Source: Candidatus Omnitrophota bacterium (GTDB taxonomy: Bacteria; Omnitrophota; Gorgyraeia; Gorgyraeales; Gorgyraeaceae). From it: DNA of 62,915 nt. Position 1 is the stretch's first letter; each line of letters begins with the position of its first letter. The notes beneath the pieces were generated by a model. It worked only from the letters and a program-made list of their open reading frames with translations, did no database searches and was not told the origin of the DNA. Below, piece by piece: positions 12,129-44,574 of this stretch. The translations under genes and the position numbers were made by a program. Location of the stretch: contig JAHIEN010000108.1 in the NCBI GenBank assembly GCA_018901615.1, positions 1 through 62,915 of the forward strand, given 5' to 3'.

Positions 12129-13529
12129 ATGAGAGTTATATTTGCAGTAAAGTATAGTGGTGATGAATATATAGGGCTTATGAGGATTTCTAGTATATTG
12201 AGAAACAAGGGGTATCAAGTAGAGGCGGTAGAAGCTGAATACAATAAGGTGAAAGAAAGATTAAAAGATGGCCTTCCCACTGTATTAGCCTATAGCGCCC
12301 CGACCATTTTTGTTAGTCATTATTTAAAATTAAATAAACGCATCAAAGAAAGATTTAATGTTTTTTCTGTGTTCGGCGGCCCACATCCTACTGCAGTTCC
12401 GGAAATGATCAAGGAAGACGGTGTCGATGGCGTATGCATAGGTGAAGGTGAATTCGCCATGCTTGAACTGGTAGATAATTTATGTTCCGGAAGACCCGTA
12501 AATGATATTAAAAATTGGTGGATTAAGGAAAATGGCAAGGTATTTAAAAATCCTTTAAGGCCATTGATCAAAGATTTGGATAGCTTACCTTTTCCCGATA
12601 GAGAATTATTTAAAAATCATGCTTTATTTGACAGGGAAAGGATCTACATATTAACAGGAAGGGGCTGTCCTTATGCATGCTCCTTTTGCTTTAATCCTTA
12701 TTATAATAAGATCTACGAAGGACAGATGACTAGTATCCGCAAGCGGAGCGTTGAAAACGTAATCGAAGAAATCAGGCGATTTAAAAAAGACTTTCCCTTG
12801 AAGTTTGTGAGATTTTATGACGATATTTTTATTTTGCCTTTTGGATGGCTAAAAGAGTTTTCCAGTAAGTACAAAAAATATGTCAATCTCCCATTTTATT
12901 GTAATGTGCGCGCAGACCTTATAGATTCCAGGATTGCTAGATACCTGAAGAATGCGGGTTGTTTCAGTGTTTCTATGGGCCTTGAAACAGCAGATGATAC
13001 TTTGCGCAATGAGATTTTGAATAAAGAAATTACAAAAGAACAAATAATTAGTGCAGTCAAGTTGTTAAAAGAGCAAAAAATTAGAGTGAGGACGAGCAAC
13101 ATCCTCGCCCTATCAAAGCAATCTATTGATAAAGATTTTGATACATTGAGATTGAATATTAAGTGTCGCGTGGATTATGCATCTGTCAGTATGCTTGCCT
13201 TTTATCCCAAAACCGGAGTCCAAAAATCAATAGGTAAATATAAGCATTCTTTACTGTGGGGCCTAGAAAATAATCAAGAGAAAAGTTTAGTAGAGAGGCT
13301 TTATTATCTTTTTCCAATCACTGTAGAATATCCATTTCTTTTTCCATTGGTGAAGATTTTAGTGAGGCTCCCTTTAGGTTGTTTATATAGAGTGTCATAT
13401 TTATTATGGCAGGGATATTGCGCATATTTTAGAACTTACCCTGGAGGCATCAGAGCTTTTATTAAGGGAGTTAAAAAATACACTAAAAAGATTGTTTTTT
13501 TGAGAAAAGAAAGATATAATAACGCATGA
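12129..13529 (+). CDS. B12-binding-domain radical SAM protein (paralog group 1)
   Basis: N-terminal Rossmann-like segment (FGGPHPT...VCIGEGE), then GRGCPYACSFC (CxxxCxxC) and GLETADD. The segment IKNWWIKENGKVFKNPLRP is shared with ORFs 26361 and 34594. Confidence 0.75.
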   Translation: MRVIFAVKYSGDEYIGLMRISSILRNKGYQVEAVEAEYNKVKERLKDGLPTVLAYSAPTIFVSHYLKLNKRIKERFNVFSVFGGPHPTAVPEMIKEDGVDGVCIGEGEFAMLELVDNLCSGRPVNDIKNWWIKENGKVFKNPLRPLIKDLDSLPFPDRELFKNHALFDRERIYILTGRGCPYACSFCFNPYYNKIYEGQMTSIRKRSVENVIEEIRRFKKDFPLKFVRFYDDIFILPFGWLKEFSSKYKKYVNLPFYCNVRADLIDSRIARYLKNAGCFSVSMGLETADDTLRNEILNKEITKEQIISAVKLLKEQKIRVRTSNILALSKQSIDKDFDTLRLNIKCRVDYASVSMLAFYPKTGVQKSIGKYKHSLLWGLENNQEKSLVERLYYLFPITVEYPFLFPLVKILVRLPLGCLYRVSYLLWQGYCAYFRTYPGGIRAFIKGVKKYTKKIVFLRKERYNNA

Positions 13530-14275
13530 CAAAACTACATATAGATGATTTTTTAGGTAGATATAAGTCCAGAGAATTTATAGACTTAGTAGAAAAATGG
13601 GATTGTAATCTTGAGAGAAAAACCGTACTCAAAACAGATCTTCGCGAAGAGGCCTTTGGAGAGGATGAAATCTTATTTTCATTATCGAATAAGAATACGC
13701 GGTTTTTCGCCTTAGATATTTCAAAAGAAACTGTTAAAAAAGCAGATATTAGACAAAAAGAAAAAGGTTTTGTCCATAGATATACTGTGGCTGATGTAAG
13801 AAATCTGCCTTTTAAAAGTGATGTTTTTGATTTTATATTGTCCAGTTCAACGCTCGACCATTTTAACTCGGAAAACGAACTTATAAAAGCTCTATTGGAA
13901 TTAAAAAGGGTGGTCAAGCCAGTGGGGAGTTTAATTATCACGCTTAATAATAGATGTAATGTTAATTTCTATCTATTGCTTAAACTAAAAAAGCTCTTTG
14001 GCTTGACCGCTTACCCTGAGCAATTTTATTGTTCAAGACAGTTAAAAACTATATTTCAAAAAGTTGGTTTATATATTCAAGGCGAAGATTACAGCGCCCA
14101 TATTATTAGCCCTGTAAACAGCACGTTACTGCTGCTTAGAAAATTTATAAGCAAAAAAGTTATAGATAGGATTGCAAGAGGGAGTGTATCTTTTTTTAGA
14201 TGGCTTGGCAAAAGGGAAAAAACTAAAATTTTCACAGGATGGTTTATAGCGTTAAAATGCAATAAAACGTATTAA
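13526..14275 (+). CDS. Class I SAM-dependent methyltransferase-like protein
   Basis: ALDISKETVKKA, DVRNLPFKSDVFDFILSSSTLDHF and LKRVVKPVGSLII resemble Methyltransf_11-type motifs. The usual GxGxG loop is replaced by VLKTDLREEAFGE. Confidence 0.55.
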   Translation: MTKLHIDDFLGRYKSREFIDLVEKWDCNLERKTVLKTDLREEAFGEDEILFSLSNKNTRFFALDISKETVKKADIRQKEKGFVHRYTVADVRNLPFKSDVFDFILSSSTLDHFNSENELIKALLELKRVVKPVGSLIITLNNRCNVNFYLLLKLKKLFGLTAYPEQFYCSRQLKTIFQKVGLYIQGEDYSAHIISPVNSTLLLLRKFISKKVIDRIARGSVSFFRWLGKREKTKIFTGWFIALKCNKTY

Positions 14276-14365
14276 ATTATGGATATAACAACATGGCAGC
14301 GGACAAAAATCATGAAATATATCAGGGTGGATGTTTGAATTTTAAGTAGCATATATCATGTTCTC

Positions 14366-14394
14366 TTGACAAATGTCGACGGCATGCATAATAT
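14366..14394 (+). promoter_or_regulatory. Near-consensus sigma70-type promoter upstream of the porin gene
   Basis: TTGACA (14366-14371), a 17-nt spacer, then TAATAT (14389-14394). It lies in the only sizeable gap (182 nt) of the + strand array. The RBS AAAGGAGAG precedes the ATG at 14458. Confidence 0.5.
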
Positions 14395-14457
14395 ATTTTG
14401 TTATAGCATTTCAATTCTTAAACTAATAGACGAATAGAAAAAAGAAAAGGAGAGAAA

Positions 14458-15534
14458 ATGAAGAAAATCGTTTTATGTTTTTTATTTATTTTTAGCACTT
14501 TGTTTGTAAAGAATGTAATAGCGGAACCAGACAAAAACTACCCCGCGATTAAAGTTTTCGGCTTTACGCATCTACAGGCATTGTATGATGATACCGCTGG
14601 GTCCAACCACGGCGAAGAATTTAGGATTGCAAGGGCAAGGATTGGCGCTATAGGGAATATAACCGACATTGTAGATTATATGGTGTTGACCGAATGGGGT
14701 CGATTTACCTACAATGACCCTGTTACACTTTTAGACGCCTGGGTCAATTGGAAGCTCAACCCCGGCCTTAATATTAAGATAGGTCAAACCTGGTATAAAT
14801 TTTCTTTTTCTGGAACAGACAATCTGCCCAAGATCCCCTTTATCTACAGGCCGGAGGTCGTGGATGGGATTTGGTTAACTATGGGTAGAAATGGTTCCTA
14901 TGCCTATGATCAAGGTATTGAACTTTGGGGTGACTTTAAAGAAAGTAGATTTCCCTGGGCGTATATGTTTTTTATTACTAATGGCTCAGGGCTTGATAAT
15001 TTTGAGGACAATGGTAAAAAGGATTTTACAGGAAGGGCATGGATCGAGCCTAAAAAGGATTTAAGATTAGGCCTTTCTGGTTTTTATGGCCATTCCAGAA
15101 CAGAGGTTACCTCTAATTTGGGCAATGAGGAAAAAAGAGATTTACCCGAATATGCCTATGGATTAGAACTAGTATACACTAAGGAGCGCTTTCGTTTCAT
15201 TTATGAATATTTAGAAGGCCTTTATGAGGGGTATGTGGATATAAATGGAGCAGAGGTCTTTCATATCGCCACCAAGAGACCTAGAGGGTGGTATACGACA
15301 TTCAGCTTTAAACCTTTATCGTGGATTGAAATACCCGTTCGTTACGCATGGTATGAAAAGGACGCGGTAAATAGCGATACTGGTTTAGAGACAGTGACCG
15401 CTGGCGTTACCTGGTTTTTAAAAGAAGGGACCTTAAATAATGTTAAATTGAATTATATTATAAAGAGCGAGGAAGAAAATTATGGTTCAAGCCCTAAAAA
15501 TATGGTCGCGCTTCAAATGCAGCTCATATTTTAA
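14458..15534 (+). CDS. Outer-membrane beta-barrel porin (phosphate-selective porin O/P-like)
   Basis: Signal peptide (MKKIVLCFLFIFSTLFVKNVIA). Alternating aromatic and hydrophilic strands. C-terminal ..LQMQLIF ends in Phe, as in OMP barrels. Confidence 0.6.
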   Translation: MKKIVLCFLFIFSTLFVKNVIAEPDKNYPAIKVFGFTHLQALYDDTAGSNHGEEFRIARARIGAIGNITDIVDYMVLTEWGRFTYNDPVTLLDAWVNWKLNPGLNIKIGQTWYKFSFSGTDNLPKIPFIYRPEVVDGIWLTMGRNGSYAYDQGIELWGDFKESRFPWAYMFFITNGSGLDNFEDNGKKDFTGRAWIEPKKDLRLGLSGFYGHSRTEVTSNLGNEEKRDLPEYAYGLELVYTKERFRFIYEYLEGLYEGYVDINGAEVFHIATKRPRGWYTTFSFKPLSWIEIPVRYAWYEKDAVNSDTGLETVTAGVTWFLKEGTLNNVKLNYIIKSEEENYGSSPKNMVALQMQLIF

Positions 15535-15600
15535 ATGGTGATTATGCTAATTTTGGTTACCGTCAATAACGAATTATCTTTAACTTAAAAGGAGGGTGTT

Positions 15601-16833
15601 GTGTTAGAAAGAATTGGAAATTTTTTTATAGTGATTATTTTTATTTTGGCTTTAACAGTAGCGACAGCTCCTCTTCAGGCTGCAAATGAGAAGGGTGATA
15701 TTAACGATGGTTCATGCACTGGTTGGGGGTGGCCCCTGCCTTATGAACAGGTAAGTAAAAAATCTCTGGAATGGCTAGAATCAAAAGGGTGGTCGCCGCT
15801 GACTATCGGGTATTTTGCCGATATCCCAGGCTATTCAGCTTGTTATTCGATAATTAAAGAAAAACAACTTTTAGAGAAACGCGGACTTTCGGTACGTTTT
15901 GTAAGCTTTCTTTCCGGCCCCCCTATCGTAGAGGCATTTTTGGGTGGTCAGACTCAGGTTACGCACTACGGTGATTTCCCTTTTTGGTTAACAGTTGACA
16001 AGGGTGCTTTGGTTAAGGCATATGCATTAACCGGAGTTAATATGGAAGTGGCGATGCTCGTTCATCCGGATTCTTCCATAAAAAAACCAGAAGATCTTAA
16101 ACAAGAAGGAAGGTTAACAGTGGTGGGCGCAACTTTAGGTTCGTATGCAGAGTTTTATCTTACAGCAATGGCTGAGCAAAAGAATTTAGTAAGAGATAAA
16201 GATTTTAGAGTGGCTGGTTTAACTACAAGAGACGCCCAGCTTCTTCCTAAAGGCGTAGATGCGGTTTGTATCTGGGATCCGCATATAACATTTTCTGAAG
16301 AGAAGGGTTTGGGGAAGAAGATTGATACAGGATACGCTTATTTTTTTAATACAGGATTTGATTTTGTTCGCAGAGAGATTCATGAAAACGCCCCTGATGT
16401 GGTACAGGCTCTTGCTGATGCGGCGGTTGAAGCTCTTTTATACGCCGGCTATGATATTGATGGCACAGTGGATTTTTTTCGCAAAGATCCCAGGGTCTCA
16501 GCCTATTCCAAGGAGCTCATAAGAGATCAGATCGCTAAATACGTGACTTTTTATCCTCCCACGTTCCGTTATATTCACAAGAATTTTTGGGCAACCGAAG
16601 ATTCCCGTATTATTAAAGCGTTAAATGCGCAGGGTAGGGTAAAAAAACCATGGAGCATCGAGGAGATGGAGGAGGTTATGGCTCCGGAATACATGGCAAA
16701 CACCTTTCAAAGGTTAGGTTGGGAGATTCCCAAGGAGCCTGTTTTTTTGCCACTAGAATGGAATGGAAAAGTGTCAGAGCCGCCGTATCCCGGGTATATA
16801 GTATCCGAGAGCAGGCCTCGGAACAAAGAGTAG
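15601..16833 (+). CDS. ABC transporter periplasmic substrate-binding protein, NMT1/SsuA-like (NitT/TauT family)
   Basis: GTG start 5 nt after GGAGGG. Signal peptide ending APLQA. Size and layout fit a type-II binding protein. The cognate permease and ATPase genes lie at 22724-25052. Confidence 0.55.
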   Translation: MLERIGNFFIVIIFILALTVATAPLQAANEKGDINDGSCTGWGWPLPYEQVSKKSLEWLESKGWSPLTIGYFADIPGYSACYSIIKEKQLLEKRGLSVRFVSFLSGPPIVEAFLGGQTQVTHYGDFPFWLTVDKGALVKAYALTGVNMEVAMLVHPDSSIKKPEDLKQEGRLTVVGATLGSYAEFYLTAMAEQKNLVRDKDFRVAGLTTRDAQLLPKGVDAVCIWDPHITFSEEKGLGKKIDTGYAYFFNTGFDFVRREIHENAPDVVQALADAAVEALLYAGYDIDGTVDFFRKDPRVSAYSKELIRDQIAKYVTFYPPTFRYIHKNFWATEDSRIIKALNAQGRVKKPWSIEEMEEVMAPEYMANTFQRLGWEIPKEPVFLPLEWNGKVSEPPYPGYIVSESRPRNKE

Positions 16834-16861
16834 CTGGTATCCTGATAAGATATAAAACGTT

Positions 16862-18280
16862 ATGAGCGATATTACCCTAATAAACATAACTTCTAAAAAT
16901 ACTTACGATGGTAAAATAGTCAATAGGTTAAGTACCATCGGTATCTATAGTCTGATTGCCTGCCTGGAAGATTCAGGGATTAGCGTTGATTTCCGTGAAT
17001 ATTTTCTTGATTTTGAAAAATCGTCTTCCGAAGAGATGGTTACCGCTGTAAAATTTTTTAAAAATTCCGAGAAGATCATAGGAATTGGCTGCCATTCGAT
17101 CCATCTGCCATTCGTAGCGCGCGTCGCGCAGGAGATAAAAAAAGCATTTCCCGATAAGTTTATTATTTTAGGCGGAGTAGGCCCTTCAATTGTAGCTAGA
17201 CCTTTAATGGAGCTAATAAAAGATATAGATCTAATAGTGATAGGTGAGGCCGAGGTCAACCTTCCGCAGTTAGTCAAGGCCTTGATATATGGTGGTAAAA
17301 AATTATCCGATATTAAAGGAATTATATTTCGTGAAGACGATAAGATTATAGCTGCGCCGCCCATAGAGCGAGTTAATGATTTAGATGATTTGCCCATGCC
17401 CGCGTATAAGTATTTAGATGTTGGATTGTACAAACAGCCGATGGTTATGTCCGCGCGGGGTTGTCCTTTTGGTTGTCCTTTTTGTAGTTTGGGGGCTTAT
17501 TGGAACAGAAAAGTAAGCTATCGTTCCCCGGAAAGGATACAGAAAGAGCTTCAGACCTTGAGCGGGATGGGGGTTAAACGCGTCTTTTTTGCTGACCCCT
17601 GTTTTATGTTAAATAAAGAAAGGTTAATAGGATTTGCAGATGTTGTAAAAAAGGATGCCTTAATGGAAGAGCTTAAGACATACGGTCGCTTGGACTTAGT
17701 AGACAGAGAAACATGCCAGATTCTAGCCGATGCTAATTTTAAAGCTATTTTTTATGGGTTAGAATCAGGGAGCGATTCAGTTTTAAGACAAATTAAAAGA
17801 GGGATCAGAGTGCAAGACGGGTTAGAAACGATAAGGATGACTAAAAAATATTTTACACGGATAGAAGTAAGTTTAATGTGGGGTTTTCCTTTTGAGACAT
17901 TGGGCGATTTAAAGAAAACTATAGATATACACAATTATCTTAAAGATGAGCTGGGTTGTGTTGTGCAGCTTACCTGGTTTCAGCCATTTGCCAACACAAG
18001 GTATTTTCAGGAATACAAAAATATCTTAATGAAGCCCGAGTCGCTTTCAGGAATTTATGATAGACGTATAGGTAGAGAACAGATCCATTCGACACTTGAT
18101 CGTGCTAAAGAATATGATTATACAATAAGCCTAAGAAGCATGATCGGACATTCTCACGTTTATTCTTTGGCAAAAGAGCTGATAGATAGTAACCCGTGTA
18201 TATTTCCCGATTTTTATCGATATAAAACACCAGATTTAGACAAAAAACTAGATATAGTAAACAAAATAGTCCCTAATTAA
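16862..18280 (+). CDS. B12-binding-domain radical SAM protein (paralog group 2, copy A)
   Basis: Starts MSDITLIN, as do 18307 and 21215. IGIGCHSIHLPF...ILGGVGPS (B12-like domain), ARGCPFGCPFC, GLESGSD. Confidence 0.75.
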   Translation: MSDITLINITSKNTYDGKIVNRLSTIGIYSLIACLEDSGISVDFREYFLDFEKSSSEEMVTAVKFFKNSEKIIGIGCHSIHLPFVARVAQEIKKAFPDKFIILGGVGPSIVARPLMELIKDIDLIVIGEAEVNLPQLVKALIYGGKKLSDIKGIIFREDDKIIAAPPIERVNDLDDLPMPAYKYLDVGLYKQPMVMSARGCPFGCPFCSLGAYWNRKVSYRSPERIQKELQTLSGMGVKRVFFADPCFMLNKERLIGFADVVKKDALMEELKTYGRLDLVDRETCQILADANFKAIFYGLESGSDSVLRQIKRGIRVQDGLETIRMTKKYFTRIEVSLMWGFPFETLGDLKKTIDIHNYLKDELGCVVQLTWFQPFANTRYFQEYKNILMKPESLSGIYDRRIGREQIHSTLDRAKEYDYTISLRSMIGHSHVYSLAKELIDSNPCIFPDFYRYKTPDLDKKLDIVNKIVPN

Positions 18281-18306: not shown

Positions 18307-19749
18307 ATGAGTGATATTACTTTAATAAATTTAACTATAGCAAAACATTTTAGCGGCAAGGTAGTCTATAAGCATAATTCGGTTGGAGTATTTCGATTGA
18401 TCGCTGTCCTTGAAAAGGCAGGATTTAAAGTCAATTTTTCCGAATATTGTTTGGATCATAGAAATTCTTTTTCGGAAGAGATAAAATGTTTTATATCCAT
18501 TATAGATCCTGCTTCTCCGCTTATAGGCATAGGGTGCCATTCGGTACATCTTCCTTTTGCAGTAATGGCCGCAAAAGAGTTAAAAAAAAGATTTCCTGAT
18601 AAAAAAATTATTATGGGGGGCATTGGCCCCTCTATGGTAGCTAAAAAATTATTAGAGAGATTTGATTTTATAAACGCTGTAGTGATTGGTGAAGCCGAAG
18701 AAACCATTGTGGAGGTTGTAAAAAATAGCATCAAAAGTTTTAAAGGCATAAAGGGCGTGCTTTATAGAGACAATGGCACTGTGGGTGTTAATGCGCCCAG
18801 GCTTCCCATAGAAGACTTGGACGCAATCCCATTGCCTGCTTACCATGCGGTAAACTTTAAAGAACAATATCAAATTCCCATTGTTTTTACATCTCGAGGG
18901 TGCCCTTTTGGGTGTTCCTTTTGTGGATTAAGCGCTTTCTGGGGAAGAAAGGTCAGATATCGTTCGTTTGATAATATAATAGAGGAACTCAGGCTTTTAA
19001 CGCATAACTATGGTATGAAATATTATTTTTTTGGCGATCCTACATTTACGCTAAATAAAGACAGGGCTCTCGAATTCTGCCAGAGGCTTCAAAAGGAAAA
19101 TTTAGGGATTAGATTTGATTGTATGGCCAGGATAGATTGCATTGATGAAGAGTTGATGGAGGAAATGGCAAAAAGCGGATGCGAGGCGCCATTTTATGGT
19201 TTAGAGTCAGGAAGCGACGATGTCCTTAAGAGGGTTAAACAGGGCGTTACCGTGAAACAGGCTTTAGAAGTCATTAAAAAATCTATCAGGCATTTTAAGA
19301 CAGTTGAAGTGGGCCTGATGTGGGGATTTCCCTTTGAGACATTAGATGATTTTAAACAAACAATTAATGCGAGAGAATATCTGGAAGATGAACTTGGCTG
19401 TGGCGTGCAGTTACGATGGCTTGAGCCATATCCCTGCACAGCGCTTTACAACGAATTTAAAAATGAGTTATTTTTACCTTATGACCAGAGCGCTATATTT
19501 AGATTTGATATGGTACACGAAGCTGTCGCCAAAGGAAAAAAATTCTATGAACCCGAAAAATATACTTCACAGGTCAATATCCCCCCCGACGTAACCAGTG
19601 TTCGATTTATGATTGCCGCTTCTCATATCGCATCGTTATGTCGAGAAACAATAGAACAGAATCAAGATATTTTCTGTGATTACTATCGCTATAAAACTCC
19701 GGCCTTAAAGGAAAAATTGGAATCCGCACAGCGATACAGCATATATTAA
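18307..19749 (+). CDS. B12-binding-domain radical SAM protein (paralog group 2, copy B)
   Basis: MSDITLIN start. SRGCPFGCSFC, GLESGSD. C-terminal DVTSVRFMIAASH...FCDYYRYKTP is shared with copy C. Confidence 0.75.
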   Translation: MSDITLINLTIAKHFSGKVVYKHNSVGVFRLIAVLEKAGFKVNFSEYCLDHRNSFSEEIKCFISIIDPASPLIGIGCHSVHLPFAVMAAKELKKRFPDKKIIMGGIGPSMVAKKLLERFDFINAVVIGEAEETIVEVVKNSIKSFKGIKGVLYRDNGTVGVNAPRLPIEDLDAIPLPAYHAVNFKEQYQIPIVFTSRGCPFGCSFCGLSAFWGRKVRYRSFDNIIEELRLLTHNYGMKYYFFGDPTFTLNKDRALEFCQRLQKENLGIRFDCMARIDCIDEELMEEMAKSGCEAPFYGLESGSDDVLKRVKQGVTVKQALEVIKKSIRHFKTVEVGLMWGFPFETLDDFKQTINAREYLEDELGCGVQLRWLEPYPCTALYNEFKNELFLPYDQSAIFRFDMVHEAVAKGKKFYEPEKYTSQVNIPPDVTSVRFMIAASHIASLCRETIEQNQDIFCDYYRYKTPALKEKLESAQRYSIY

Positions 19750-19757
19750 GGAAAATT

Positions 19758-24273: not shown

Positions 24274-24275
24274 TT

Positions 24276-29433: not shown

Positions 29434-29493
29434 TGGAATAGCTTAAGTTTGTAGTAAAATTATTTGTTACTTAAGAACAGCATAAATGTCACT

Positions 29494-34152: not shown

Positions 34153-34587
34153 ATGAAAAAATCTATGCACGCGCCGCAGGTATTAAATGAACCTGTTAAA
34201 TACGTCAAACCTGTTTCTTTTTCCCGGGGGATGAGGGTTGATCTGGGGGAGTGGGGTATATTGTTTATTTCAGGAACAGCAAGCGTAGATAAGCATGGGA
34301 AGACAGTATATCGTGGTGATTTACTGGCCCAGAGTAAACGTACATTCAAAAATCTTACTGCATTGCTTAAGTCTGAAGGCGCCAGTTGGCATAATGTTGT
34401 GAAGACAACTTGTTTTTTAAAGGATATGCTTAATTATGATGCCTTTAATGAATTCAGAAACAGGTTCTATAAAGACCAGGGACTTAAAATGTTCCCAGCT
34501 TCCACCTGTGTAGAAGCATGTCTTTGCCGCGCGGATCTACTTGTGGAAGTGGAGTTGATCGCTATCTTTAAAATAAAAAGAAAATAG
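34153..34587 (+). CDS. RidA/YjgF/Endoribonuclease L-PSP family protein
   Basis: 144 aa. LFISGTASVDKHGK, VVKTTCFLKDM and PASTCVEA...VEVELIA match the family layout. Confidence 0.75.
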   Translation: MKKSMHAPQVLNEPVKYVKPVSFSRGMRVDLGEWGILFISGTASVDKHGKTVYRGDLLAQSKRTFKNLTALLKSEGASWHNVVKTTCFLKDMLNYDAFNEFRNRFYKDQGLKMFPASTCVEACLCRADLLVEVELIAIFKIKRK

Positions 34588-37938: not shown

Positions 37939-38952
37939 ATGGAAAAAGTAAATGATTTGAACAAGCCAGTATGGTTTTTAAACCCTTGGTTTGATATCCT
38001 AATTCTTGCCGGTTTTCCAATCGCTTTTATATTCATACCTTTAATATGTTATGCCTGGATACATAGCCCAAAATTTGAGTATTACTTATATGCGGCATCT
38101 AATCTTCCCCATGTCTTTGCCGGATACACTGTAGTCTATTTGTCTCAAAAGGCATATAAAGAAAAACCGATAACATTTCTCTGGATTCCACTATTTATTA
38201 TTATTGCCACAATAATCTTTTGGCAGCCAAGATATTACAGACAGATTCTACATATTCGATTTTTCTGGGGAATGTGGCATGTCGCCATACAGTTTTTCTA
38301 TATTTTAAGCTTTTATAAGTTGCGAAACCTTGATTATTTGAGGATCGATAAGATTTTAGACACACTTGCTCTTGCAGCGGGGCCTGTCTATTTATATCTT
38401 AGCTACTACGTACGTCTTATCTTAAAACCGCAGGCGGATATTATTTATAAGGTATCATTTGTTGAGCAGCTATTGAAATACTCGGTTATGTTCACATGGA
38501 TTATCGCAGTCGCCTTTATAGCAAGACAGGTCTATTTGTTTATCCGATGGAAGAAGGTTTATCTTTTTAAGTTCTTAATGATTCCTATAGTTATCTTAAT
38601 TTATGTCGTTCCGTTATTAATATTTAAGGATATTCATGCTGCCAGTCAAGCGGTGATAGCAATGCATAATGTGCAATATGTCAGCTGGGTTTGGTTGTAT
38701 TATCATCAAAGGTTTAAAGGGAAAGCTGTTCAAGAAAATAGGGCAATATCTTACTTTTTTAAACCTGGCCGTACCGGACATTATGTTTTCTTTTTTTTGT
38801 TGGCAGGTACTTTATTTATGCTAGTTGTGATGAAGATGGCGTATTTAAGTCATGACCCACATTTGACTTTCAAGGCAATAACCGGCCCTTTTGCTCTTAT
38901 CCATTTTTACCTTGATGGAAGAATCTGGAAAAATGTCAATGATATGATGTGA
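37939..38952 (+). CDS. Polytopic integral membrane protein, function unknown
   Basis: 337 aa with about 8-9 hydrophobic segments. Recurrent His in or near TM segments (PHVFAGY, WGMWHVAIQ, AMHNVQY, LIHFYLDGRIWK). No family recognised. Confidence 0.5.
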   Translation: MEKVNDLNKPVWFLNPWFDILILAGFPIAFIFIPLICYAWIHSPKFEYYLYAASNLPHVFAGYTVVYLSQKAYKEKPITFLWIPLFIIIATIIFWQPRYYRQILHIRFFWGMWHVAIQFFYILSFYKLRNLDYLRIDKILDTLALAAGPVYLYLSYYVRLILKPQADIIYKVSFVEQLLKYSVMFTWIIAVAFIARQVYLFIRWKKVYLFKFLMIPIVILIYVVPLLIFKDIHAASQAVIAMHNVQYVSWVWLYYHQRFKGKAVQENRAISYFFKPGRTGHYVFFFLLAGTLFMLVVMKMAYLSHDPHLTFKAITGPFALIHFYLDGRIWKNVNDMM

Positions 38953-39039: not shown

Positions 39040-39783
39040 ATGCATTACGCAGTCGAAATAAGTAATCTATCCAAAGAGTTTATACAAAAAGAGAACCCGG
39101 CAAGCCTTTTGGCTTCAAAGCGAAACAAGAAAAATATTGTGGCCTTGGATGATATTAATTTGCAGATCAAAAAAGGCGAATGTTTTGGGCTGGTCGGCGT
39201 AAATGGGTCAGGCAAGACTACATTGTTAAAGTTATTAGCTACCCTTATTTTGCCCACGAAAGGGACAGCCCATATTAATGGCTATAATATTGTCAGGGAC
39301 GCCATAAAGGTACGCGCTATTACGGGGTTTGTCAGCTCAGGGCAGCGCAGTTTTTACTGGCGTTTAACCGGAAGACAAAATTTGGAATTCTTTGCCGCTC
39401 TTTATGAATTATTTCAGCTAGAAGCGCGCAGAAGAATAGATGAATTAGCAGCTTTGCTGGAAATCGAGAAATACATGGATTACACTTTTTATAGTTGTTC
39501 TGCCGGGATACAGCAAAGATTTTTTCTTGCCCAAAGCCTTCTTCATAATCCAGATGTCCTCCTTTTAGATGAACCCACGAAAGGTTTAGATACGGTAATA
39601 GCTAAACAGTTACGGAGTTTTATTAAAGAAAAATTTGCGCGCGAGCAAGGTAAAACCGTGTTATTTACTACCCATGATCATGATGAAATGGCCATGTTTT
39701 CAGATAGGATCGCGATATTAGAGCATGGCCAAATTAAAACCGTCGGCACCGCAGATGGATTAAGAGATGTTAAGCTTTTATAA
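39040..39783 (+). CDS. ABC transporter ATP-binding protein (ABC-2 exporter type)
   Basis: Walker A GVNGSGKTT, Walker B LLLDEPTKGLD, H-loop TTHD. The signature motif is atypical (CSAGIQQR instead of LSGGxxQR). Confidence 0.75.
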   Translation: MHYAVEISNLSKEFIQKENPASLLASKRNKKNIVALDDINLQIKKGECFGLVGVNGSGKTTLLKLLATLILPTKGTAHINGYNIVRDAIKVRAITGFVSSGQRSFYWRLTGRQNLEFFAALYELFQLEARRRIDELAALLEIEKYMDYTFYSCSAGIQQRFFLAQSLLHNPDVLLLDEPTKGLDTVIAKQLRSFIKEKFAREQGKTVLFTTHDHDEMAMFSDRIAILEHGQIKTVGTADGLRDVKLL

Positions 39784-39829: not shown

Positions 39830-40648
39830 GTGATAACTTTGATGAAAAAGATAGCCGCTTGCGTCAAAAAGGATTTTTTAGATACCTTAAGCTATAGATT
39901 ACCCTGTTTTTTGACGGTTTGCGGTATCGTTTTAGTATTAGTAATTCTTTATTTCTTGCCCCACTCCTTTGTTAAGAGATCTTTTGTCCTTAATCCCGAA
40001 GGTATTAGGATAACATATTTTAATTTTATACTGAGCGGCTTGATGCTTAGCATGTATTTAGTCTCACCCTTTGCTGCTTTTTCTGCGCAAATACAAAAGA
40101 TACGGACAATAGGGATACTGGAAGCATTATTAGTAACCCCTACCAGATTTATCACCATTCTTGCAGCGCAGTATATCGGATATTTTCTTTTTGCATCAAT
40201 AATCAATATACCTATTCTGTTATTCATTAGCTATTGCTTAAAGGATCTTGTGGTAAGCCCAAATATTTTTGCGATCGCTATTATTTTTACTCTATCTTTC
40301 ATTTTGTTTGGTGCTTTTTCTATATTCATAGCAAGTTTCATCATAGTATTTGAAGATGGCAAGCCGATTACTAAAGCAATAATCGGCTGTCTTAGAATTT
40401 GCGGAAACATTTACTTTCCCGTTACTATTTTACCAAAGAGCTTACAAATGTTCGCTTATAGCCTGCCCTTTAGTCATATTTTTCGCGCCTTTAGGATGGC
40501 CTTGTTTGCTAACTATACGCTTTGGGATATAGCGCCGTATATATTAATTCTTTTAGCTTTTGCTCTTGTTTTATTTCCATTAAGCGTCTGGAGTCTCAAT
40601 TGTGCCTTAAGAAAAGCAAAAGAAAGGGGAACCCTTGCGAAATATTAA
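39830..40648 (+). CDS. ABC-2 type transporter permease
   Basis: 272 aa with about 6 TM segments, immediately after the ATPase. GTG start; an alternative ATG lies at 39842. Confidence 0.6.
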   Translation: MITLMKKIAACVKKDFLDTLSYRLPCFLTVCGIVLVLVILYFLPHSFVKRSFVLNPEGIRITYFNFILSGLMLSMYLVSPFAAFSAQIQKIRTIGILEALLVTPTRFITILAAQYIGYFLFASIINIPILLFISYCLKDLVVSPNIFAIAIIFTLSFILFGAFSIFIASFIIVFEDGKPITKAIIGCLRICGNIYFPVTILPKSLQMFAYSLPFSHIFRAFRMALFANYTLWDIAPYILILLAFALVLFPLSVWSLNCALRKAKERGTLAKY

Positions 40649-40747
40649 GTTGAACCGTTACAGTGCATGCAGCGATTCTGAAAGTGTATTCAGCTCAAAC
40701 TGCAACAATCGTGATTATCAAAATATAAATAAAGTGAAAATAATACT

Positions 40748-41731
40748 ATGAAGATAGGTATTCTGGGATGTGGAGCAATAGGGGGATTGTTGTTAGGATA
40801 TCTTACCGATAAAGGGCACAATGTTCGAGGGGTGGTAAAACCCTATCAAAAATATTCAATCGCATCGGACAATTTAATTGTCCAAGGCATAAGGGGGAAT
40901 CGCCGCTATAATGTGCTTGTTGACACGTCATTGAGGGAAAAGGTTGACCTGGCTATTATAGCGACAAAAATAAATGATGTGGACCAGATTATAAAAGAAA
41001 ATAGCCAATATTTAAACAGCGCGCTTATTCTTACAGTTCAAAATGGGATAAAAACAGATTATATTGTAAGGAAGCATTTCCCTGAAGAGCGTATTATTTC
41101 GAGCGTGGTGATGTTTGCTTCAATGTTCAATCCTCCCAATACCATTCTCCATAGTCTTGAAGGAGATCTTATCTTAGGGAATATCTTTTCTGTCAATGTG
41201 CAAGGCATGAATGAGGTAAAGGATGTCTTAAAAACTGTTTTCAATACATACATAGTTGAGGACATGAAGGCGGCAAAGTATACGAAGTTAATGATTTCTT
41301 TGCAGTTTTGCATTCCAGCGGTACTCGGACTATCTATGCAAGAGGCATTTTTGGATTTAGAAATGGCTGAATTCGCGTTATTGTTAAGAAGGGAGGCCTA
41401 TGATATCCTCAAGAAAGCTCACATTGGCTTATGCGGCCTCCCTGGCTTTTCCAAAGAAATAATCGAAAAATCTGTTTCTATGGATATAAGGAAAATGAAA
41501 AGGCTATTCTCCAAAGCTAAACGCAGCAAATCGTTCTATGGCTCAATGTCCCAAAGTATAAAAAGAGGGAAAAAGACAGAGATAGATTATATTAATGGAG
41601 AGATACAAGAAATCGCGCGCAGGCATCAGCTAACAGCGCCATTAAATGAGAAAATAACCGCTTTGGTCCATCGGGTTGAGGAAACAGGAAGTTTCGTTAC
41701 TAAAAAAGATTTAGTAAGCATCTTTAAGTAA
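40748..41731 (+). CDS. Ketopantoate reductase (PanE/ApbA) family NAD(P)-dependent oxidoreductase
   Basis: N-terminal MKIGILGCGAIGG dinucleotide-binding motif. AIIATK, SMSQSIKRGKKTEIDYINGEI resembles the ApbA C-terminal domain (S..D...g..tEid.inG). Confidence 0.65.
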   Translation: MKIGILGCGAIGGLLLGYLTDKGHNVRGVVKPYQKYSIASDNLIVQGIRGNRRYNVLVDTSLREKVDLAIIATKINDVDQIIKENSQYLNSALILTVQNGIKTDYIVRKHFPEERIISSVVMFASMFNPPNTILHSLEGDLILGNIFSVNVQGMNEVKDVLKTVFNTYIVEDMKAAKYTKLMISLQFCIPAVLGLSMQEAFLDLEMAEFALLLRREAYDILKKAHIGLCGLPGFSKEIIEKSVSMDIRKMKRLFSKAKRSKSFYGSMSQSIKRGKKTEIDYINGEIQEIARRHQLTAPLNEKITALVHRVEETGSFVTKKDLVSIFK

Positions 41732-41755
41732 ATCATTGGAACAAAAATTTTAATC

Positions 41756-43183
41756 ATGTCCAAATTTAAAATAAAACTTATTGTTCCGCCTTCTTTTAAG
41801 CAGTTAGAAGGGGATAATGTACAATACGCCGAATATTTAGATTATTATAGCTTGCCCGTTTATGGGATGGGAGTCCTGATTTCTTTCTTAAGACAGAAGG
41901 ATTATTATGTCGATGTGCAGGATTTTACCGCACAATCTGAAAGATCAGCCCAAGAATCAGACCTTTACCTTTATGATTACACAGAGTTTTTTACGCAGAT
42001 TCTTACTACAGGCAGAGCTGATCAGAAGATCGAAACGATAGTAGATAAGATATTTAATCCCGCTGATTACAAAGGGTTTGGCGTTGTAGGTTTTTCTCTC
42101 CACCATTTTGGCCATTTTCTTTTTGCTATTTTACTTGCCAGAAAAATCAGGGATATGTCTAATATACCTATTGTTTTTGGAGGGGCGTTTATTACTATAT
42201 GGGGCCGTCTCTATCCAGAAGTTTTTGATTTTATAAATTATATGATAGTGGGCGATGGACGGCAACCTTTTCTGAAGCTTTTAAATTATTTTGAAAACGG
42301 CGCAAAAGCTAAGGCGACGATCCCAAACCTTATTTATCGAGAAGGTGAAAAGTTAATCGCAACCGAGTTTATTCGTTATTCTTTTCATGATATCCCTATC
42401 CCTGATTTTACTGATCTTGATCTTAATTCTTGCAGGGAGTCTCTAGGCGGCGAACTGGTTTTGCCTTATGAACCTACGCGAGGATGTGTCTATCGATGCA
42501 GTTTTTGTATAAAAAACCCAATGGAAAACGGATATCAAACAAAATCGTATGATAGAATTATCAAAGAATTAAGGGAGATGAAAGAGAAGTATGATTGCGA
42601 AAGGTTTCAGTTCTGCGATCATAATATAGCTTGTTCATATCAATATCTAGATGGATTAGTTGATGTGTTCATAACGGAAGGTTTAGAGATCAAATGGAGG
42701 CCGTTTATGGACATCAGAAAGGTAGATAAAAAACTTCTTAAGAAAATGAGCCAAGCAGGTTGTGAGGTAATTTTTTACGGCATAGAATCCGGGAGCGATC
42801 GAATGCTGGAGATGATTCACAAAGGGCAGTCTTCAAAACAAGCCGCTAAGGTATTACGCTGGACAAAGGAGGCAGGGATAAAAACGCTGGTAGCTTTTAT
42901 GGTAGGGTATCCTCATGAAGCGGAGAGCGATGTTATCAGGACGATCAAGTTTATTAAAAGAAATAGAGGATATATTGATTTTGCCGTGGTGCGATATTTT
43001 GGGATTTTGGATAGTAACTTTATGTCAAAAAATCCATTGGAATATGGAATCCGCAATCTTAGGCGTTCATTGAGCCGCTATATGCTTGAGTATGATGAAG
43101 TCGGTGGGTTGTCTTGGGAGCAGAAGATAATACAACGGAAAAAAACAATGAGAAGGATAATGCAGGTGTTATGGGGAAAATAG
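41756..43183 (+). CDS. B12-binding-domain radical SAM protein (paralog group 3)
   Basis: TRGCVYRCSFC, GIESGSD. IPNLIYREGEK...IPIPDFTDLDL parallels ORF 27886. Confidence 0.7.
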   Translation: MSKFKIKLIVPPSFKQLEGDNVQYAEYLDYYSLPVYGMGVLISFLRQKDYYVDVQDFTAQSERSAQESDLYLYDYTEFFTQILTTGRADQKIETIVDKIFNPADYKGFGVVGFSLHHFGHFLFAILLARKIRDMSNIPIVFGGAFITIWGRLYPEVFDFINYMIVGDGRQPFLKLLNYFENGAKAKATIPNLIYREGEKLIATEFIRYSFHDIPIPDFTDLDLNSCRESLGGELVLPYEPTRGCVYRCSFCIKNPMENGYQTKSYDRIIKELREMKEKYDCERFQFCDHNIACSYQYLDGLVDVFITEGLEIKWRPFMDIRKVDKKLLKKMSQAGCEVIFYGIESGSDRMLEMIHKGQSSKQAAKVLRWTKEAGIKTLVAFMVGYPHEAESDVIRTIKFIKRNRGYIDFAVVRYFGILDSNFMSKNPLEYGIRNLRRSLSRYMLEYDEVGGLSWEQKIIQRKKTMRRIMQVLWGK

Positions 43184-43197
43184 TTATGATGTAGTGT

Positions 43198-44574
43198 ATG
43201 ATAAATATGGATAAGTTTAAAATGAAATATCGTAAAAGAATAACGCCGTGGTATTTCTATCCCCCTATAGGAGTTTTGGGATCAAATAGAGAAGAGATAA
43301 ATTTAAGAGAAAGATCTGAATTACAAGACTCATCTTCGCTTTACGTACACATCCCTTTCTGCGCTTCGATCTGCACTTATTGCGGTTTTTACCGTACTAT
43401 AAGCTTGAAAAAAGAAAAATTATTAGAAGCGTATCTTATCGCTTTGGAAAAAGAGATAGTAATGTATGCCAAAACACCTTATGTGAAATCACTAAAGTTT
43501 GGAGCGGTTTACTTTGGCGGAGGCACGCCAAGCGTATTGTCTTCAACGCAGTTAGAGAGGCTTCTGGAGATATGCAAAAGAGAATTCAATTTATCTGATA
43601 ATGCCCAGATAACAATAGAAGGGAATAGTTCAAGTCTCGATGAGACTAAGCTCAGTAAGATACTACTGAAAGGATTCAACAGGCTAAGCCTTGGCGTACA
43701 AACGTTTAATGATGCAATAGGTAAAAGTCTCAATCTGCCGCATTCCTGGCACCAGGCTATAAAAATTATCGAGCAAGCCCGCAACATTGGGTATAGAAAT
43801 ATTAGTATTGATTTAATGTATAATTTGCCTGGAGAGACATTAGAAATATGGGAAGATGATTTAAAAAAAGCGATTGCTTTAGGTGTTGATCATGTGACTG
43901 TTTTCTTTTTATCCGTACTTCCTAACACACTACTAGAGCAACAACTTAAAGATAATAGAATTCTTCCAATAGGTTCTCGCGATAAAGAAATAAAGATGTA
44001 TGAACTCGCGATAAAAACATTAACAGGTGCCGGATATTTACAAGAAAGGTTAACAGACTTTGTTAAATCAGAAGTTGAGGGATGGGTATATGGGCGTCTT
44101 CGAGCAGCCTGTACCGATGTTGTGGGGTTAGGGGCGGGAGCTTTTGGGTATCTTAATCATTATCTTTACCATAACCTTAGATCAATCGATGGCTATATTA
44201 ACGCAGTGAAAGACAGGCAGTTTCCTATAAATATTTCAAAAAAGATTTCAGTCGTAGAAGAGATGCATGGTTTTATGGCGGTTGGGTTGAGAGATCTAAA
44301 GGTAAATAAACAAAAATTTAAAAAAAGATTTGGCCTCGAGGCGCAGGATGTTTTTTACGATACCTTGAATAGGTTAGAGAGTAAAGGATGGATCGAATTA
44401 ACAGATGAAGAGATAAGATTATCTTATTTAGGCATGCTTTGGGCAGTAGAGGTCTGCCGCGAGTTCTATTCTCCCGAAGTAAGGACATTGCTGGGTAAGA
44501 TAGGGTGTAACAAAACTAAAGATTTTTGGAAAGATAAACTGAGTCGTTTAATAAAACGAATTGGTTCATATTAA
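43198..44574 (+). CDS. HemN/HemW-like radical SAM protein (coproporphyrinogen-III-oxidase family, possibly class C methyltransferase-type)
   Basis: YVHIPFCASICTYCGF, YFGGGTPS, SLGVQTF and a HemN_C-like tail. Confidence 0.7.
   Translation: MINMDKFKMKYRKRITPWYFYPPIGVLGSNREEINLRERSELQDSSSLYVHIPFCASICTYCGFYRTISLKKEKLLEAYLIALEKEIVMYAKTPYVKSLKFGAVYFGGGTPSVLSSTQLERLLEICKREFNLSDNAQITIEGNSSSLDETKLSKILLKGFNRLSLGVQTFNDAIGKSLNLPHSWHQAIKIIEQARNIGYRNISIDLMYNLPGETLEIWEDDLKKAIALGVDHVTVFFLSVLPNTLLEQQLKDNRILPIGSRDKEIKMYELAIKTLTGAGYLQERLTDFVKSEVEGWVYGRLRAACTDVVGLGAGAFGYLNHYLYHNLRSIDGYINAVKDRQFPINISKKISVVEEMHGFMAVGLRDLKVNKQKFKKRFGLEAQDVFYDTLNRLESKGWIELTDEEIRLSYLGMLWAVEVCREFYSPEVRTLLGKIGCNKTKDFWKDKLSRLIKRIGSY

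Follow-up and report, generated by a model that had tools for sequence, protein, structure and literature searches.

A modular, importer-linked cluster of radical SAM genes in Omnitrophota, tentatively read as making an exported acid-derived metabolite

What might a bacterium do with eleven genes for radical S-adenosylmethionine (rSAM) enzymes placed along a single strand? The question is raised by an array between positions 12129 and 44574 of a 62,915-nucleotide (nt) stretch of DNA from a Candidatus Omnitrophota bacterium (contig JAHIEN010000108.1 of GenBank assembly GCA_018901615.1, positions 1 to 62,915 of the forward strand), which in its whole length we refer to as the window. We found that the array is one version of a family of gene clusters that recurs in other genomes, and in which rSAM genes are linked to a binding-protein-dependent importer. 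Our tentative reading, which could well be right, is that of a modular biosynthetic gene cluster in which an imported anionic organic acid would undergo serial radical C-H functionalisation and then be exported to the envelope.

The open reading frame (ORF) list of the window places 25 ORFs between these positions, every one on the + strand, in a run of 32 kb. Among the 24 junctions, 18 measure 45 nt or less and four are overlaps, while the largest gap (14275-14458) is 182 nt. The rSAM domain PF04055 scores above its Pfam gathering score in eleven of the 25 ORFs; ten of these have an exact CxxxCxxC motif, and the eleventh, ORF 26361, reads CPYACAYY, with the third Cys gone. An original prediction, made from the letters of this DNA, had described the single strand, the tight junctions and eleven motif-bearing ORFs including the degenerate one, and our analysis agrees in each respect, with the motifs at the positions it had named. 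If 3% of all genes are taken to encode rSAM enzymes, a figure assumed for the estimate and not a value from the source genome, the probability of at least eleven among 25 genes by chance is approximately 5e-11. The genes are given below and are named in the text by their first position; pairs of scores are bits obtained vs the family's cut-off.

12129-13529, + strand: group 1 B12-binding rSAM enzyme, motif CPYACSFC (PF02310, PF04055; best NCBIfam match HpnJ, 100 vs 578 bits)
13526-14275, + strand: class I SAM-dependent methyltransferase (Methyltransf_11/25/31), overlapping 12129 by 4 nt
14276-14457, no strand: the sole long intergenic gap, with a promoter-like TTGACA-17-TAATAT at 14366-14394
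14458-15534, + strand: outer-membrane porin of the phosphate-selective O/P family (Porin_O_P, PF07396), with a signal peptide
15601-16833, + strand: substrate-binding protein, SsuA/TauA-like (NitT/TauT group), with a signal peptide (TIGR01728, 83 vs 163.5 bits)
16862-18280, + strand: group 2 B12-binding rSAM enzyme, motif CPFGCPFC (PF02310, PF04055)
18307-19749, + strand: group 2 B12-binding rSAM enzyme, motif CPFGCSFC (PF02310, PF04055)
19758-21176, + strand: class I aminotransferase-fold protein (PF00155, 131 bits)
21215-22657, + strand: group 2 B12-binding rSAM enzyme, motif CSFACSFC (PF02310, PF04055), 64% identical to 18307
22724-23482 and 23479-24273, + strand: importer permeases (BPD_transp_1, Pfam)
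24234-25052, + strand: importer ATPase (Pfam)
25059-26336, + strand: rare SPASM-like rSAM enzyme, motif CNLSCKSC (PF04055), with an amphipathic N-terminal region
26361-27908, + strand: degenerate B12-binding rSAM protein, CPYACAYY (PF02310, PF04055), paralog of 34594
27886-29433, + strand: group 3 B12-binding rSAM enzyme, motif CVHKCSFC (best NCBIfam match the PhpK family, 129 vs 600 bits)
29464-33105, + strand: membrane-anchored PQQ_2 beta-propeller protein of 1213 amino acids (aa) (Pfam, N-terminus)
33106-34107, + strand: secreted protein of the alkaline-phosphatase superfamily (Pfam, N-terminus)
34153-34587, + strand: Rid/YjgF-family protein (PF01042; TIGR00004, 66.6 vs 106 bits)
34594-36687, + strand: group 1 B12-binding rSAM enzyme of 697 aa, motif CHYSCSFC (PF02310, PF04055)
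36712-37902, + strand: zinc-ribbon rSAM enzyme, TrsS/Tes-like, motif CNLDCPVC (PF23545, 54 bits; PF04055), the zinc ribbon being N-terminal
37939-38952, + strand: polytopic membrane protein from a very rare family; four His and two Gln are invariant in alignment A3
39040-39783, + strand: ATPase of a DrrAB-like ABC-2 exporter (Pfam; DrrA subfamily, 208 vs 312 bits)
39830-40648, + strand: permease of the DrrAB-like ABC-2 exporter (Pfam)
40748-41731, + strand: NAD(P)H-dependent 2-oxoacid reductase of the ketopantoate reductase family, ApbA/PanE-like (PF02558, PF08546; TIGR00745, 148.6 vs 141 bits)
41756-43183, + strand: group 3 B12-type rSAM enzyme, motif CVYRCSFC (PF04055; PF02310 sub-threshold)
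43198-44574, + strand: HemN-fold (class C type) rSAM enzyme with HemN_C, motif CASICTYC (Pfam)

Related loci (numbered with an L) were fetched around the anchors 18307 and 25059 from genomes and metagenomes, together with further long contigs; every window protein was compared with them, and presence was counted by tblastn of the window proteins against ten independent locus groups. In at least a dozen independent loci, with GC contents between 0.28 and 0.67, these families stand together again in tight arrays. The recurring core consists of an outer-membrane channel, a binding protein, a NitT/TauT-type importer, B12-binding rSAM enzymes of the 16862/18307/21215 family and the 25059 family, and the linkage of importer and rSAM genes is the most conserved feature of the cluster. 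The 25059 family is found in nine of the ten locus groups, 18307, the most widely conserved enzyme of the cluster, in eight, the importer ATPase likewise in eight and a permease in seven, with 64-77% identity for the importer in the closest loci. Homologs of 18307 at 50-65% identity come only from Omnitrophota, Elusimicrobiota and one metagenome-assembled genome labelled Planctomycetia. The homologs being syntenic rather than scattered, the array is not a chance juxtaposition, an argument that we rank above the chance estimate, and the dedicated radical pathway proposed in the original prediction holds up. The prediction's picture of one co-directional array also fits the window, with one correction: the cluster is a modular family rather than a fixed operon, because its genes occur in varied combinations and four window genes (26361, 29464, 33106 and 40748) have no counterpart in the related loci compared by tblastn. 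Among these four, the propeller and the phosphatase-like protein (29464 and 33106) probably stand outside the conserved pathway, and 26361, with its degenerate motif, may have arisen from the 34594 family as a copy that is inactive or serves as a scaffold.

The best relative is L113, a 114-kb contig of GC content 0.37, which holds 12 window families within 21 kb at 35-70% identity to the window proteins:

25059-like rSAM enzyme, two copies, 36%
porin, 57%
21215-like rSAM enzyme, 58%
16862-like rSAM enzyme, 65%
binding protein, 70%
importer permeases, 68% and 64%
Rid-like protein, 69%
37939-like membrane protein, 35%
importer ATPase, 69%
aminotransferase-fold protein, 68%
Tes-like rSAM enzyme, 36%
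exporter ATPase, 48%

Here the Rid-like and 37939-like genes lie between the importer permeases and the ATPase. The frequent companions of the core are the aminotransferase-fold protein, the Rid protein, the rare membrane protein, the Tes/TrsS-like rSAM enzyme and the DrrAB-like exporter, and they appear in different mixtures. The contig family L009/L055/L064 has in common with the window the GT4-type glycosyltransferase, methyltransferase, porin, binding protein, importer, 18307, 27886 and exporter, and carries three 25059-like and two Tes-like (36712-like) genes as well. An SM23_72-type contig (L007, L068) combines GT4, Wzy_C, the importer with two binding proteins, a 12129-like gene with its methyltransferase and an 18307-like gene with three 25059-like genes, Rid, a 37939-like, a 34594-like (57%) and a Tes-like gene, and L072 holds three 41756-like, two 34594-like, one 25059-like and one Tes-like gene together with the exporter. 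Two blocks, one of GT4, 12129 and methyltransferase and the other of Rid, 34594, 36712 and 37939, travel as separate modules. Between contigs with GC contents of 0.29 to 0.67, core proteins show 57-77% identity, and the module has possibly been transferred laterally.

Two variants among the related loci deserve mention. In L010, a marine Omnitrophota locus, the 18307 homolog is preceded (2631-6983) by genes for two sulfotransferases, an ADI/DDAH-fold protein and a fusion of a cytidylyltransferase-like domain with adenosine 5'-phosphosulfate (APS) kinase, which suggests that this variant makes a sulfated product. Peptidase_U32-family genes occur in L112 (6807-7787) and L018 (14002-15087), with N-terminal fragments in L012 (11480-11623) and L061 (769-867), and none is present in the window; this family includes the oxygen-independent hydroxylases UbiU/UbiV, TrhP and RlhA.

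Eight of the eleven rSAM genes are of the B12-binding type, as had been predicted. PF02310 scores above threshold in seven of them (12129, 16862, 18307, 21215, 26361, 27886 and 34594), narrowly so for 27886 (32.6 vs 32.1), and 41756, which stays below it (22.5 bits, E 1e-4), was counted as the eighth because it is a full-length, 33%-identical paralog of 27886. The three paralog groups that had been sorted by eye were recovered by blastp, with identities of 30-33% in group 1 (12129/26361/34594), 42-64% in group 2 (16862/18307/21215) and 33% in group 3 (27886/41756). None of the eight belongs to a curated family: against the NCBIfam equivalogs tested (HpnJ, HpnR, BchE, PhpK, BzaD, ApyD, KedN5, AprD4, the 'ladderane-type' TIGR04072 and the C-methyltransferase family TIGR03975 of ribosomally synthesised peptides modified after translation, RiPPs) they obtain 56-194 bits, with cut-offs of 251-750, and the top score is that for ApyD, 194 vs 750 bits. 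In a search of the Protein Data Bank (PDB), the solved structures nearest to 18307 are AprD4, CysS, OxsB and TokK, and for 27886 and 34594 there are essentially no relatives. B12-domain rSAM enzymes include dehydratases, cyclases and ring-contraction enzymes besides methylases. The original prediction had also specified cobalamin-dependent methylation or C-C bond formation as the probable chemistry, and that chemistry is one possibility among several; the solved structure nearest to 18307 is that of the dehydratase AprD4.

Orthologs of these enzymes are spread unevenly over the loci. Those of 16862 (62-66%) occur in Elusimicrobiota-type loci and L113, those of 12129 (43-45%) in L012 and L068, that of 27886 (44-46%) in L009/L064, and those of 41756 (37-38%) in L007 and L072, the latter with three tandem copies. 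The 18307 protein is identical to one with the annotation 'Candidatus Omnitrophica bacterium', and is found on GCA_018899115.1 and three metagenome contigs. A conserved C-terminal extension of approximately 250 aa, basic and hydrophobic, sets 34594 apart; its orthologs in L065-L069 and L072 (48-58%) are 700-722 aa long, and its best NCBIfam match is TIGR04072, 'lipid biosynthesis B12/rSAM', at 113 vs 360 bits.

The three remaining rSAM enzymes are of other types. In 25059, seven further Cys after the rSAM core are invariant (alignment A2), PF13186 (SPASM) being undetected by Pfam. Its AlphaFold2 (AF2) model (pLDDT 81.8) gives SuiB, TigE, SkfB, BlsE and viperin as best Foldseek matches, with TM scores of about 0.5. 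The family is very rare: of the 1.84 billion representatives that HMMER scanned exhaustively, 35 reach E<=1e-30, and a word-indexed search of 5.8 billion proteins gave 23 clusters at E<=1e-10. For 36712, both TrsS (172 vs 490 bits) and Tes (NF045702, 137 vs 450 bits) stay below cut-off. Its best PDB match, GDGT-MAS (7tol, 124 bits), covers residues 73-247 of its 396 aa, i.e., the rSAM core only; the target has 526 aa, so that 36712 falls short of it by 130 aa, and the part of Tes missing from it is C-terminal. Orthologs (36-49%) are found in L009, L068, L072 and L113. Lastly, 43198 is ambiguous between ChuW/HutW (264 bits, cut-off 400) and HemW (232 bits, cut-off 205) in NCBIfam and matches HemN and NocN in the PDB, and a 38%-identical homolog lies beside 18307-like paralogs in L022. 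Hydrophobic segments are seen in 36712 (one, at 310-339), the 34594 extension, the 12129 C-terminus and the 25059 N-terminus. As a test of membrane association their conservation among relatives is patchy, and they lend that idea weak support.

Gene fusions join some of these families. A 926-aa protein fuses a B12-binding rSAM enzyme to a 25059-like one (L055 2148-4928, the same as L064 8291-11071), and in several proteins of two Elusimicrobiota-type loci an adenylating AMP-binding domain is fused to a B12-binding rSAM enzyme (1009-1067 aa; L006 16186-19323 and L111 13593-19807). Because of the former fusion, and because the aminotransferase-fold gene directly adjoins a group 2 B12-binding rSAM gene in eight of the ten loci that hold it, we take the rSAM families to be functionally coupled.

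The importer hints at what these enzymes might work on. The closest PDB matches of the binding protein 15601 are SsuA and TauA, and its orthologs (69-74%) occur in L009, L013, L063 and L113. The importer proteins match SaoP and SaoA best among NCBIfam models, followed by TauC, NtrB and SsuC, all below cut-off (SaoP 178 and 166 vs 295 bits; SaoA 252 vs 360 bits). The porin is of a phosphate-selective family, and sulfonate and taurine binders are the closest matches of the binding protein, which makes an organic anion the probable cargo. Porin orthologs (43-60%) are present in L009/L064, L013 and L113. Channel, binding protein and importer are the cluster's most constant partners. In L112 the porin is swapped for a non-homologous Phenol_MetA_deg channel, and because this locus keeps the binding protein and importer despite the unrelated channel, we take uptake to be a built-in part of the cluster. 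The listed TTG start of the ATPase gene 24234 implies a 40-nt overlap with the preceding permease gene, and an internal Met (MAKVEF...) may be the true start. The exporter has orthologs in L009/L055 (55% and 45%), L072 and L113, four loci being counted, and bears a likeness to lantibiotic-protection pumps too. Being DrrAB-like and not Wzm/Wzt-like, it would suit a product that is small or amphiphilic.

Two of the partner proteins have lost residues on which their families' usual chemistry depends. In HMMER alignments with 1dju, 1gd9 and 1bkg, the Schiff-base Lys of 19758 is replaced by His (H280), the pyridine-nitrogen Asp by Asn and a Tyr by His, with the phosphate-binding Ser/Arg and the carboxylate-binding Arg409 retained. 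Across the window protein and eight orthologs (from L011, L015, L016, L019, L058, L111, L112 and L113), the Schiff-base position is His in eight, Ser in one and Lys in none. A strongly conserved N-terminal extension of approximately 85 aa (HQLVGNFFHYRTAIKILG...GRLDLNPxKWADFGPLNF) precedes the fold. We infer from these residues that 19758 holds a substrate or uses pyridoxal phosphate (PLP) in a non-classical way. The Rid protein reads FPASTCVEA in the window, and a direct check found the same substitution in L113 (15733-16188). By manual comparison with the E. coli RidA motif, FPARSCVEV with the catalytic Arg105, it is thus without the catalytic arginine. Its orthologs (69-71%) are in L068 and L113, in the latter within the importer operon. 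All the companion genes that the original prediction had listed are indeed there by domain, but its 'aminotransferase' without the Lys and its 'RidA' without the Arg are not canonical members of their families.

The membrane protein 37939 matches nothing in Pfam or NCBIfam and has only five relatives among 5.8 billion proteins; its orthologs are in L068 (41%) and L113 (35%, inside the importer operon). A fold search with its AF2 model was abandoned, the model (pLDDT 47.5) being too poor for use.

The proposal that the cluster builds a metabolite from an imported acid starts from its established features, namely gene content, conserved linkage, the losses of catalytic residues and the lack of membership in characterised families; what the substrate is, which radical chemistry is used and where the product goes are our inferences from these. 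An anionic organic acid would enter through the channel, the SsuA-like binding protein and the NitT/TauT-type importer; it would resemble an amino, oxo or hydroxy acid and might bear a sulfonate or phosphonate group. Three B12-domain families together with the SPASM-like, Tes/TrsS-like and HemN-fold enzymes, working in the cytoplasm and probably at the membrane, would then functionalise its C-H bonds repeatedly by radical chemistry, through C-methylation, C-C coupling or rearrangement. The lysine-less aminotransferase-fold protein and the arginine-less Rid protein would act as substrate-handling partners and not as transaminase and deaminase, the 2-oxoacid reductase and methyltransferases would finish the molecule, and the DrrAB-like ABC-2 pump would export it, to be released or attached to the envelope glycan of the adjoining locus.

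Enzymes of carboxylic and 2-oxoacids recur in the loci through unrelated families. The ketopantoate-reductase-like enzyme of the window is matched by D-2-hydroxyacid dehydrogenases (2-Hacid_dh) in L006 and L068, which could fill the same role as 40748; L072 has an acetolactate synthase (660 bits, above cut-off), L055 an indolepyruvate:ferredoxin oxidoreductase (654 bits, above cut-off) and a LysA-like decarboxylase, and PaaK/CapK-like adenylating enzymes are present in L072 and L113. These recurring enzymes, the AMP-binding fusions of L006 and L111 and the retained carboxylate-binding Arg of 19758 support an acid as the precursor. A stoichiometric rSAM turnover consumes one SAM, and a B12-dependent rSAM methylase two per turnover. 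Because one or two SAM would be spent on each reaction, and because an exporter travels with the enzymes, we favour biosynthesis over catabolism. In a bolder version, the imported acid, amino or oxo, would be held by the lysine-less PLP-fold protein, perhaps in an adduct with its cofactor, and serial radical alkylation or cross-linking by the cobalamin/rSAM and SPASM enzymes would turn it into a new class of heavily C-modified metabolites, an envelope or secreted class characteristic of Omnitrophota and Elusimicrobiota; we think this version unlikely. Three narrower themes for the substrate were dropped, each appearing in one or two loci at sub-threshold scores: arginine (a GntC-like top match, the ADI-like gene of L010 and the decarboxylase of L055), aromatic acids (the indolepyruvate oxidoreductase, a PaaK-like ligase and the aromatic-aminotransferase-like fold) and C3 sulfonates or phosphonates.

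The envelope glycan enters the proposal through the genes around the array. The run of + strand genes begins upstream of 12129 and includes two glycosyltransferase genes, 10053 and 10922, and that strand also holds the majority of genes as far back as position 221.

10053-10925, + strand: GT2 glycosyltransferase (Pfam), upstream of the array
10922-12106, + strand: GT4 glycosyltransferase (Pfam), a conserved neighbour of the 12129/13526 pair
45181-47121, - strand: PMT_2 glycosyltransferase (ArnT-like, GT-C; Pfam), flanking the array downstream

The GT4 gene, 12129 and the methyltransferase form a conserved triad: in L012 and L064, GT4 orthologs (49-60%) adjoin 12129-like and 13526-like genes, and 13526 orthologs (48-54%) lie beside 12129-like or GT4 genes. 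The upstream region as a whole is an envelope-glycan locus with three GT4 and two GT2 genes, SGNH-type proteins, a GH5-like secreted protein and a gene of the Wzy_C/O-antigen-ligase type. The secreted protein (4699-6849, 716 aa) has GH5 (cellulase-type) and CARDB-like domains and is encoded among the glycosyltransferases. A PMT_2 gene also follows a 21215-like gene in L005, and genes of the GT2, GT4, GT9, Wzy_C, PMT_2, DegT and dTDP-sugar kinds adjoin the cluster in the window, L005, L007, L056 and L064. Downstream lie housekeeping genes (pnp, uppP, ftsK, rodZ, a MiaB/RimO-type rSAM gene, pgsA, pgpA, cinA, recA and a DegP-like protease gene). The rSAM gene in this group, the twelfth of the window (53708-54967; UPF0004, Radical_SAM and TRAM), encodes a methylthiotransferase of the MiaB/RimO type, is housekeeping in kind, and lies outside the array and is unrelated to it. 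GC content is 0.35-0.41 in the glycan and rSAM region (1-48000), with 0.35-0.40 in the cluster itself, and 0.41-0.47, about 0.46, in the housekeeping flank (48000-62915).

Promoter and terminator scans of the window gave counts not above those of shuffled sequence; the site in the 182-nt gap alone is notable, and is a likely start of the importer/rSAM transcription unit. Rfam detects no cobalamin, SAM or other riboswitch anywhere in the window. Among the window proteins scanned with Pfam there are no polyketide synthase (PKS), nonribosomal peptide synthetase (NRPS), fatty-acid, isoprenoid or phosphoenolpyruvate (PEP) mutase domains, and no lipid-synthesis genes were found in the array. The absence of PKS/NRPS, fatty-acid, isoprenoid and precursor-peptide genes had been read off the letters before, and the Pfam scans and small-ORF searches agree with it.

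Several points weigh against the proposal of an exported, acid-derived metabolite. The substrate, product and activities that it gives to the enzyme families of the cluster are putative. The B12 domains of the array may not bind cobalamin, by analogy with AprD4, a dehydratase of the B12-binding rSAM architecture that makes no use of cobalamin. The accessory acid-metabolising enzymes are not the same in every locus, and some of them may be neighbours with no connection to the pathway; the acetolactate synthase and the indolepyruvate oxidoreductase score as ordinary housekeeping types. As to the attachment to a glycan, the window lacks an enzyme for adenylation or ligation by which the product could be joined to it, and the glycan genes lie on the flanks of the conserved core, with no interleaving. 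L055 has no glycosyltransferase in its 21 kb, although in the overlapping L064 this core has GT2 and GT4 on its upstream side, a few kb away. Furthermore, SPASM-type rSAM enzymes act most often on peptides, and the Tes-like enzyme, the 'lipid biosynthesis' family as a best match and the hydrophobic tails point towards a lipid substrate instead.

Such a substrate would mean that the rSAM enzymes tailor membrane lipids, or acyl chains of lipid A or another glycolipid, by methyl branching, ring formation or Tes-like tail-to-tail coupling, as with the Tes, Grs, Hbs and Hgm enzymes of the archaeal glycerol dialkyl glycerol tetraether (GDGT) toolkit, and that the ABC-2 pump exports the lipid. The toolkit of membrane-spanning lipids (Tes/GDGT-MAS, GrsA/B, Hbs and Hgm, and bacterial Mss) does show the same mix of a zinc-ribbon rSAM enzyme with SPASM-like and B12-binding ones, and the tetraether synthase GDGT-MAS, which is the nearest solved structure to 36712, has the zinc ribbon in common with it. 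The best NCBIfam match of 34594, the co-occurrence of the polytopic 37939 with its invariant His, the lipopolysaccharide/O-antigen-type genes nearby and a report of Mss and Hbs homologs in Omnitrophota (preprint 10.1101/2023.10.20.563219) could all be accommodated. However, both family scores lie far under their cut-offs (137 vs 450 for Tes, 113 vs 360 for TIGR04072), the match of 36712 is limited to its core and excludes the missing Tes C-terminal part, and the hydrophobic segments are inconsistently conserved. Neither the array nor the Pfam-called genes of the related loci include fatty-acid, isoprenoid, glycerolipid or lipid A genes, and the toolkit has no counterpart for the channel, binding protein, importer and recurring soluble-acid enzymes, which would be left unexplained. 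On balance we regard lipid tailoring as rather unlikely. Modification of a peptide or protein, RiPP-like or in the maturation of an envelope protein, would likewise account for SPASM-type and B12-binding enzymes, which could cross-link and C-methylate, and for an ABC-2 exporter; rSAM-rich RiPP clusters (proteusins such as polytheonamide, streptide with SuiB, and sactipeptides) combine several of each with an ABC exporter. The maturases SuiB, TigE and SkfB come nearest to the 25059 model, 25059 has its seven conserved auxiliary Cys, group 2 scores best against ApyD, TIGR03975 is top for 41756 and second to PhpK for 27886, and the pump is akin to those for lantibiotic protection. Yet the family scores are again far under cut-off, none of the array's intergenic gaps holds a precursor-peptide ORF, the only small ORFs conserved across loci are the N-terminal fragments of U32-family genes, and protease, leader-recognition (RRE) and cyclodehydratase genes are lacking, whereas the porin, binding-protein importer, PLP-fold, Rid and 2-oxoacid proteins are foreign to known RiPP clusters. 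We consider a peptide product decidedly improbable.

The importer that both of these alternatives leave aside is central to a third, in which it would form a core with the B12-binding and SPASM-like rSAM enzymes for anaerobic salvage of an organosulfonate, a phosphonate or another recalcitrant compound, the remaining rSAM genes being unrelated neighbours. The binding protein and permeases are nearest to sulfonate, taurine and SAO-type importers, the porin family is phosphate-selective, PhpK-type P-methyltransferases are among the top matches of 27886, 16862 and 12129, and the L010 18307 homolog has sulfotransferases and APS kinase beside it. There is also precedent in an rSAM enzyme of anaerobic isethionate assimilation that adjoins sulfonate transporters (PMC11423573). 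The likeness to the SAO system is limited to the level of transporter families, however: the permease, ATPase and binding-protein families are those of SsuABC, TauABC and SaoABP, but the array is without a MerB-like SaoL or other SAO gene, SsuD or TauD, and has an outer-membrane channel of its own and interleaved rSAM genes. Nor are there follow-up genes for sulfite, phosphite or C-P lyase, a PEP mutase or a nitrogenase-like partner. It is established enzymology that stoichiometric turnover costs SAM, which suits catabolism poorly, and the fact that three to eleven rSAM genes and an exporter travel together argues for building and not breaking down, so we hold salvage to be improbable. The same travelling together bears on the last alternative, a mosaic of unrelated co-directional operons in a variable envelope island. 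Gene order and content do differ among loci, the four window-only genes lack counterparts, the GT4/12129/13526 and Rid/34594/36712/37939 blocks are apart from the importer block in some loci, and the region's GC content is below that of the housekeeping flank. Against this, the same dozen families re-associate across contigs of widely different GC content, the blocks interleave (Rid and 37939 within the L113 importer operon), two kinds of fusion join families, and eleven rSAM genes in 25 are far above chance. Synteny and fusions thus largely refute a mosaic, which we consider very improbable.

How does the array, read as a biosynthetic cluster for an imported acid, compare with known systems? 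Class B rSAM tailoring enzymes (CysS, TokK/ThnK, GenK, Fom3 and PhpK, and the non-methylating AprD4, OxsB and HpnJ) have the same N-terminal B12-binding Rossmann domain and rSAM core, and, by likeness to CysS and TokK, the tandem paralogs of the array suggest iterative or sequential action. Their pathways differ in that the array is without PKS, NRPS, aminoglycoside or phosphonate scaffold genes and ties eight such enzymes to a binding-protein-dependent importer. A phosphonate biosynthetic cluster was considered and rejected, since no PEP_mutase is among the window proteins in the general Pfam scan, no dedicated search of the related loci having been made. The nearest published observation is that of group VI nitrogenase-like loci of groundwater Elusimicrobia, with up to 13 rSAM genes, some of them B12-binding or with HemN_C (Meheust et al., 2020). 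One phylum is common to both, but the defining partner is a nitrogenase paralog there and an importer here, and tblastn with a NifH query found no NifH-like gene in the window or loci L001-L110, which rules out that the array is such a locus. Full-text searches found no description of the cluster in the searchable literature, nor a published function for the TrsS and DVU_1553-type families. Together with the absence of any B12-binding rSAM enzyme at a curated cut-off, this supports the original prediction, which could not match the array to a described pathway. The superfamilies, and rSAM-rich clusters as such, are known; the importer-centred architecture, the four unassigned B12-binding rSAM families, the 25059 and 37939 families and the PLP-fold and Rid partners are undescribed in that literature.

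Some of the most difficult reactions in biology are catalysed by rSAM and cobalamin-dependent enzymes, and for the majority of the families no function is known. Here, one conserved and transportable module unites four uncharacterised families of B12-binding rSAM enzymes with a very rare family of SPASM-like ones, an enzyme that is Tes-like and two 'decapitated' helpers. Its binding protein offers an experimental handle, as the ligand can be screened for directly. The carriers, Omnitrophota and Elusimicrobiota, are lineages whose cell-surface chemistry is barely known and which include host-dependent nanobacteria. The identity of the product could reveal new radical chemistry, a new envelope component or a secreted effector, and could explain why small genomes invest in eleven SAM-consuming enzymes.

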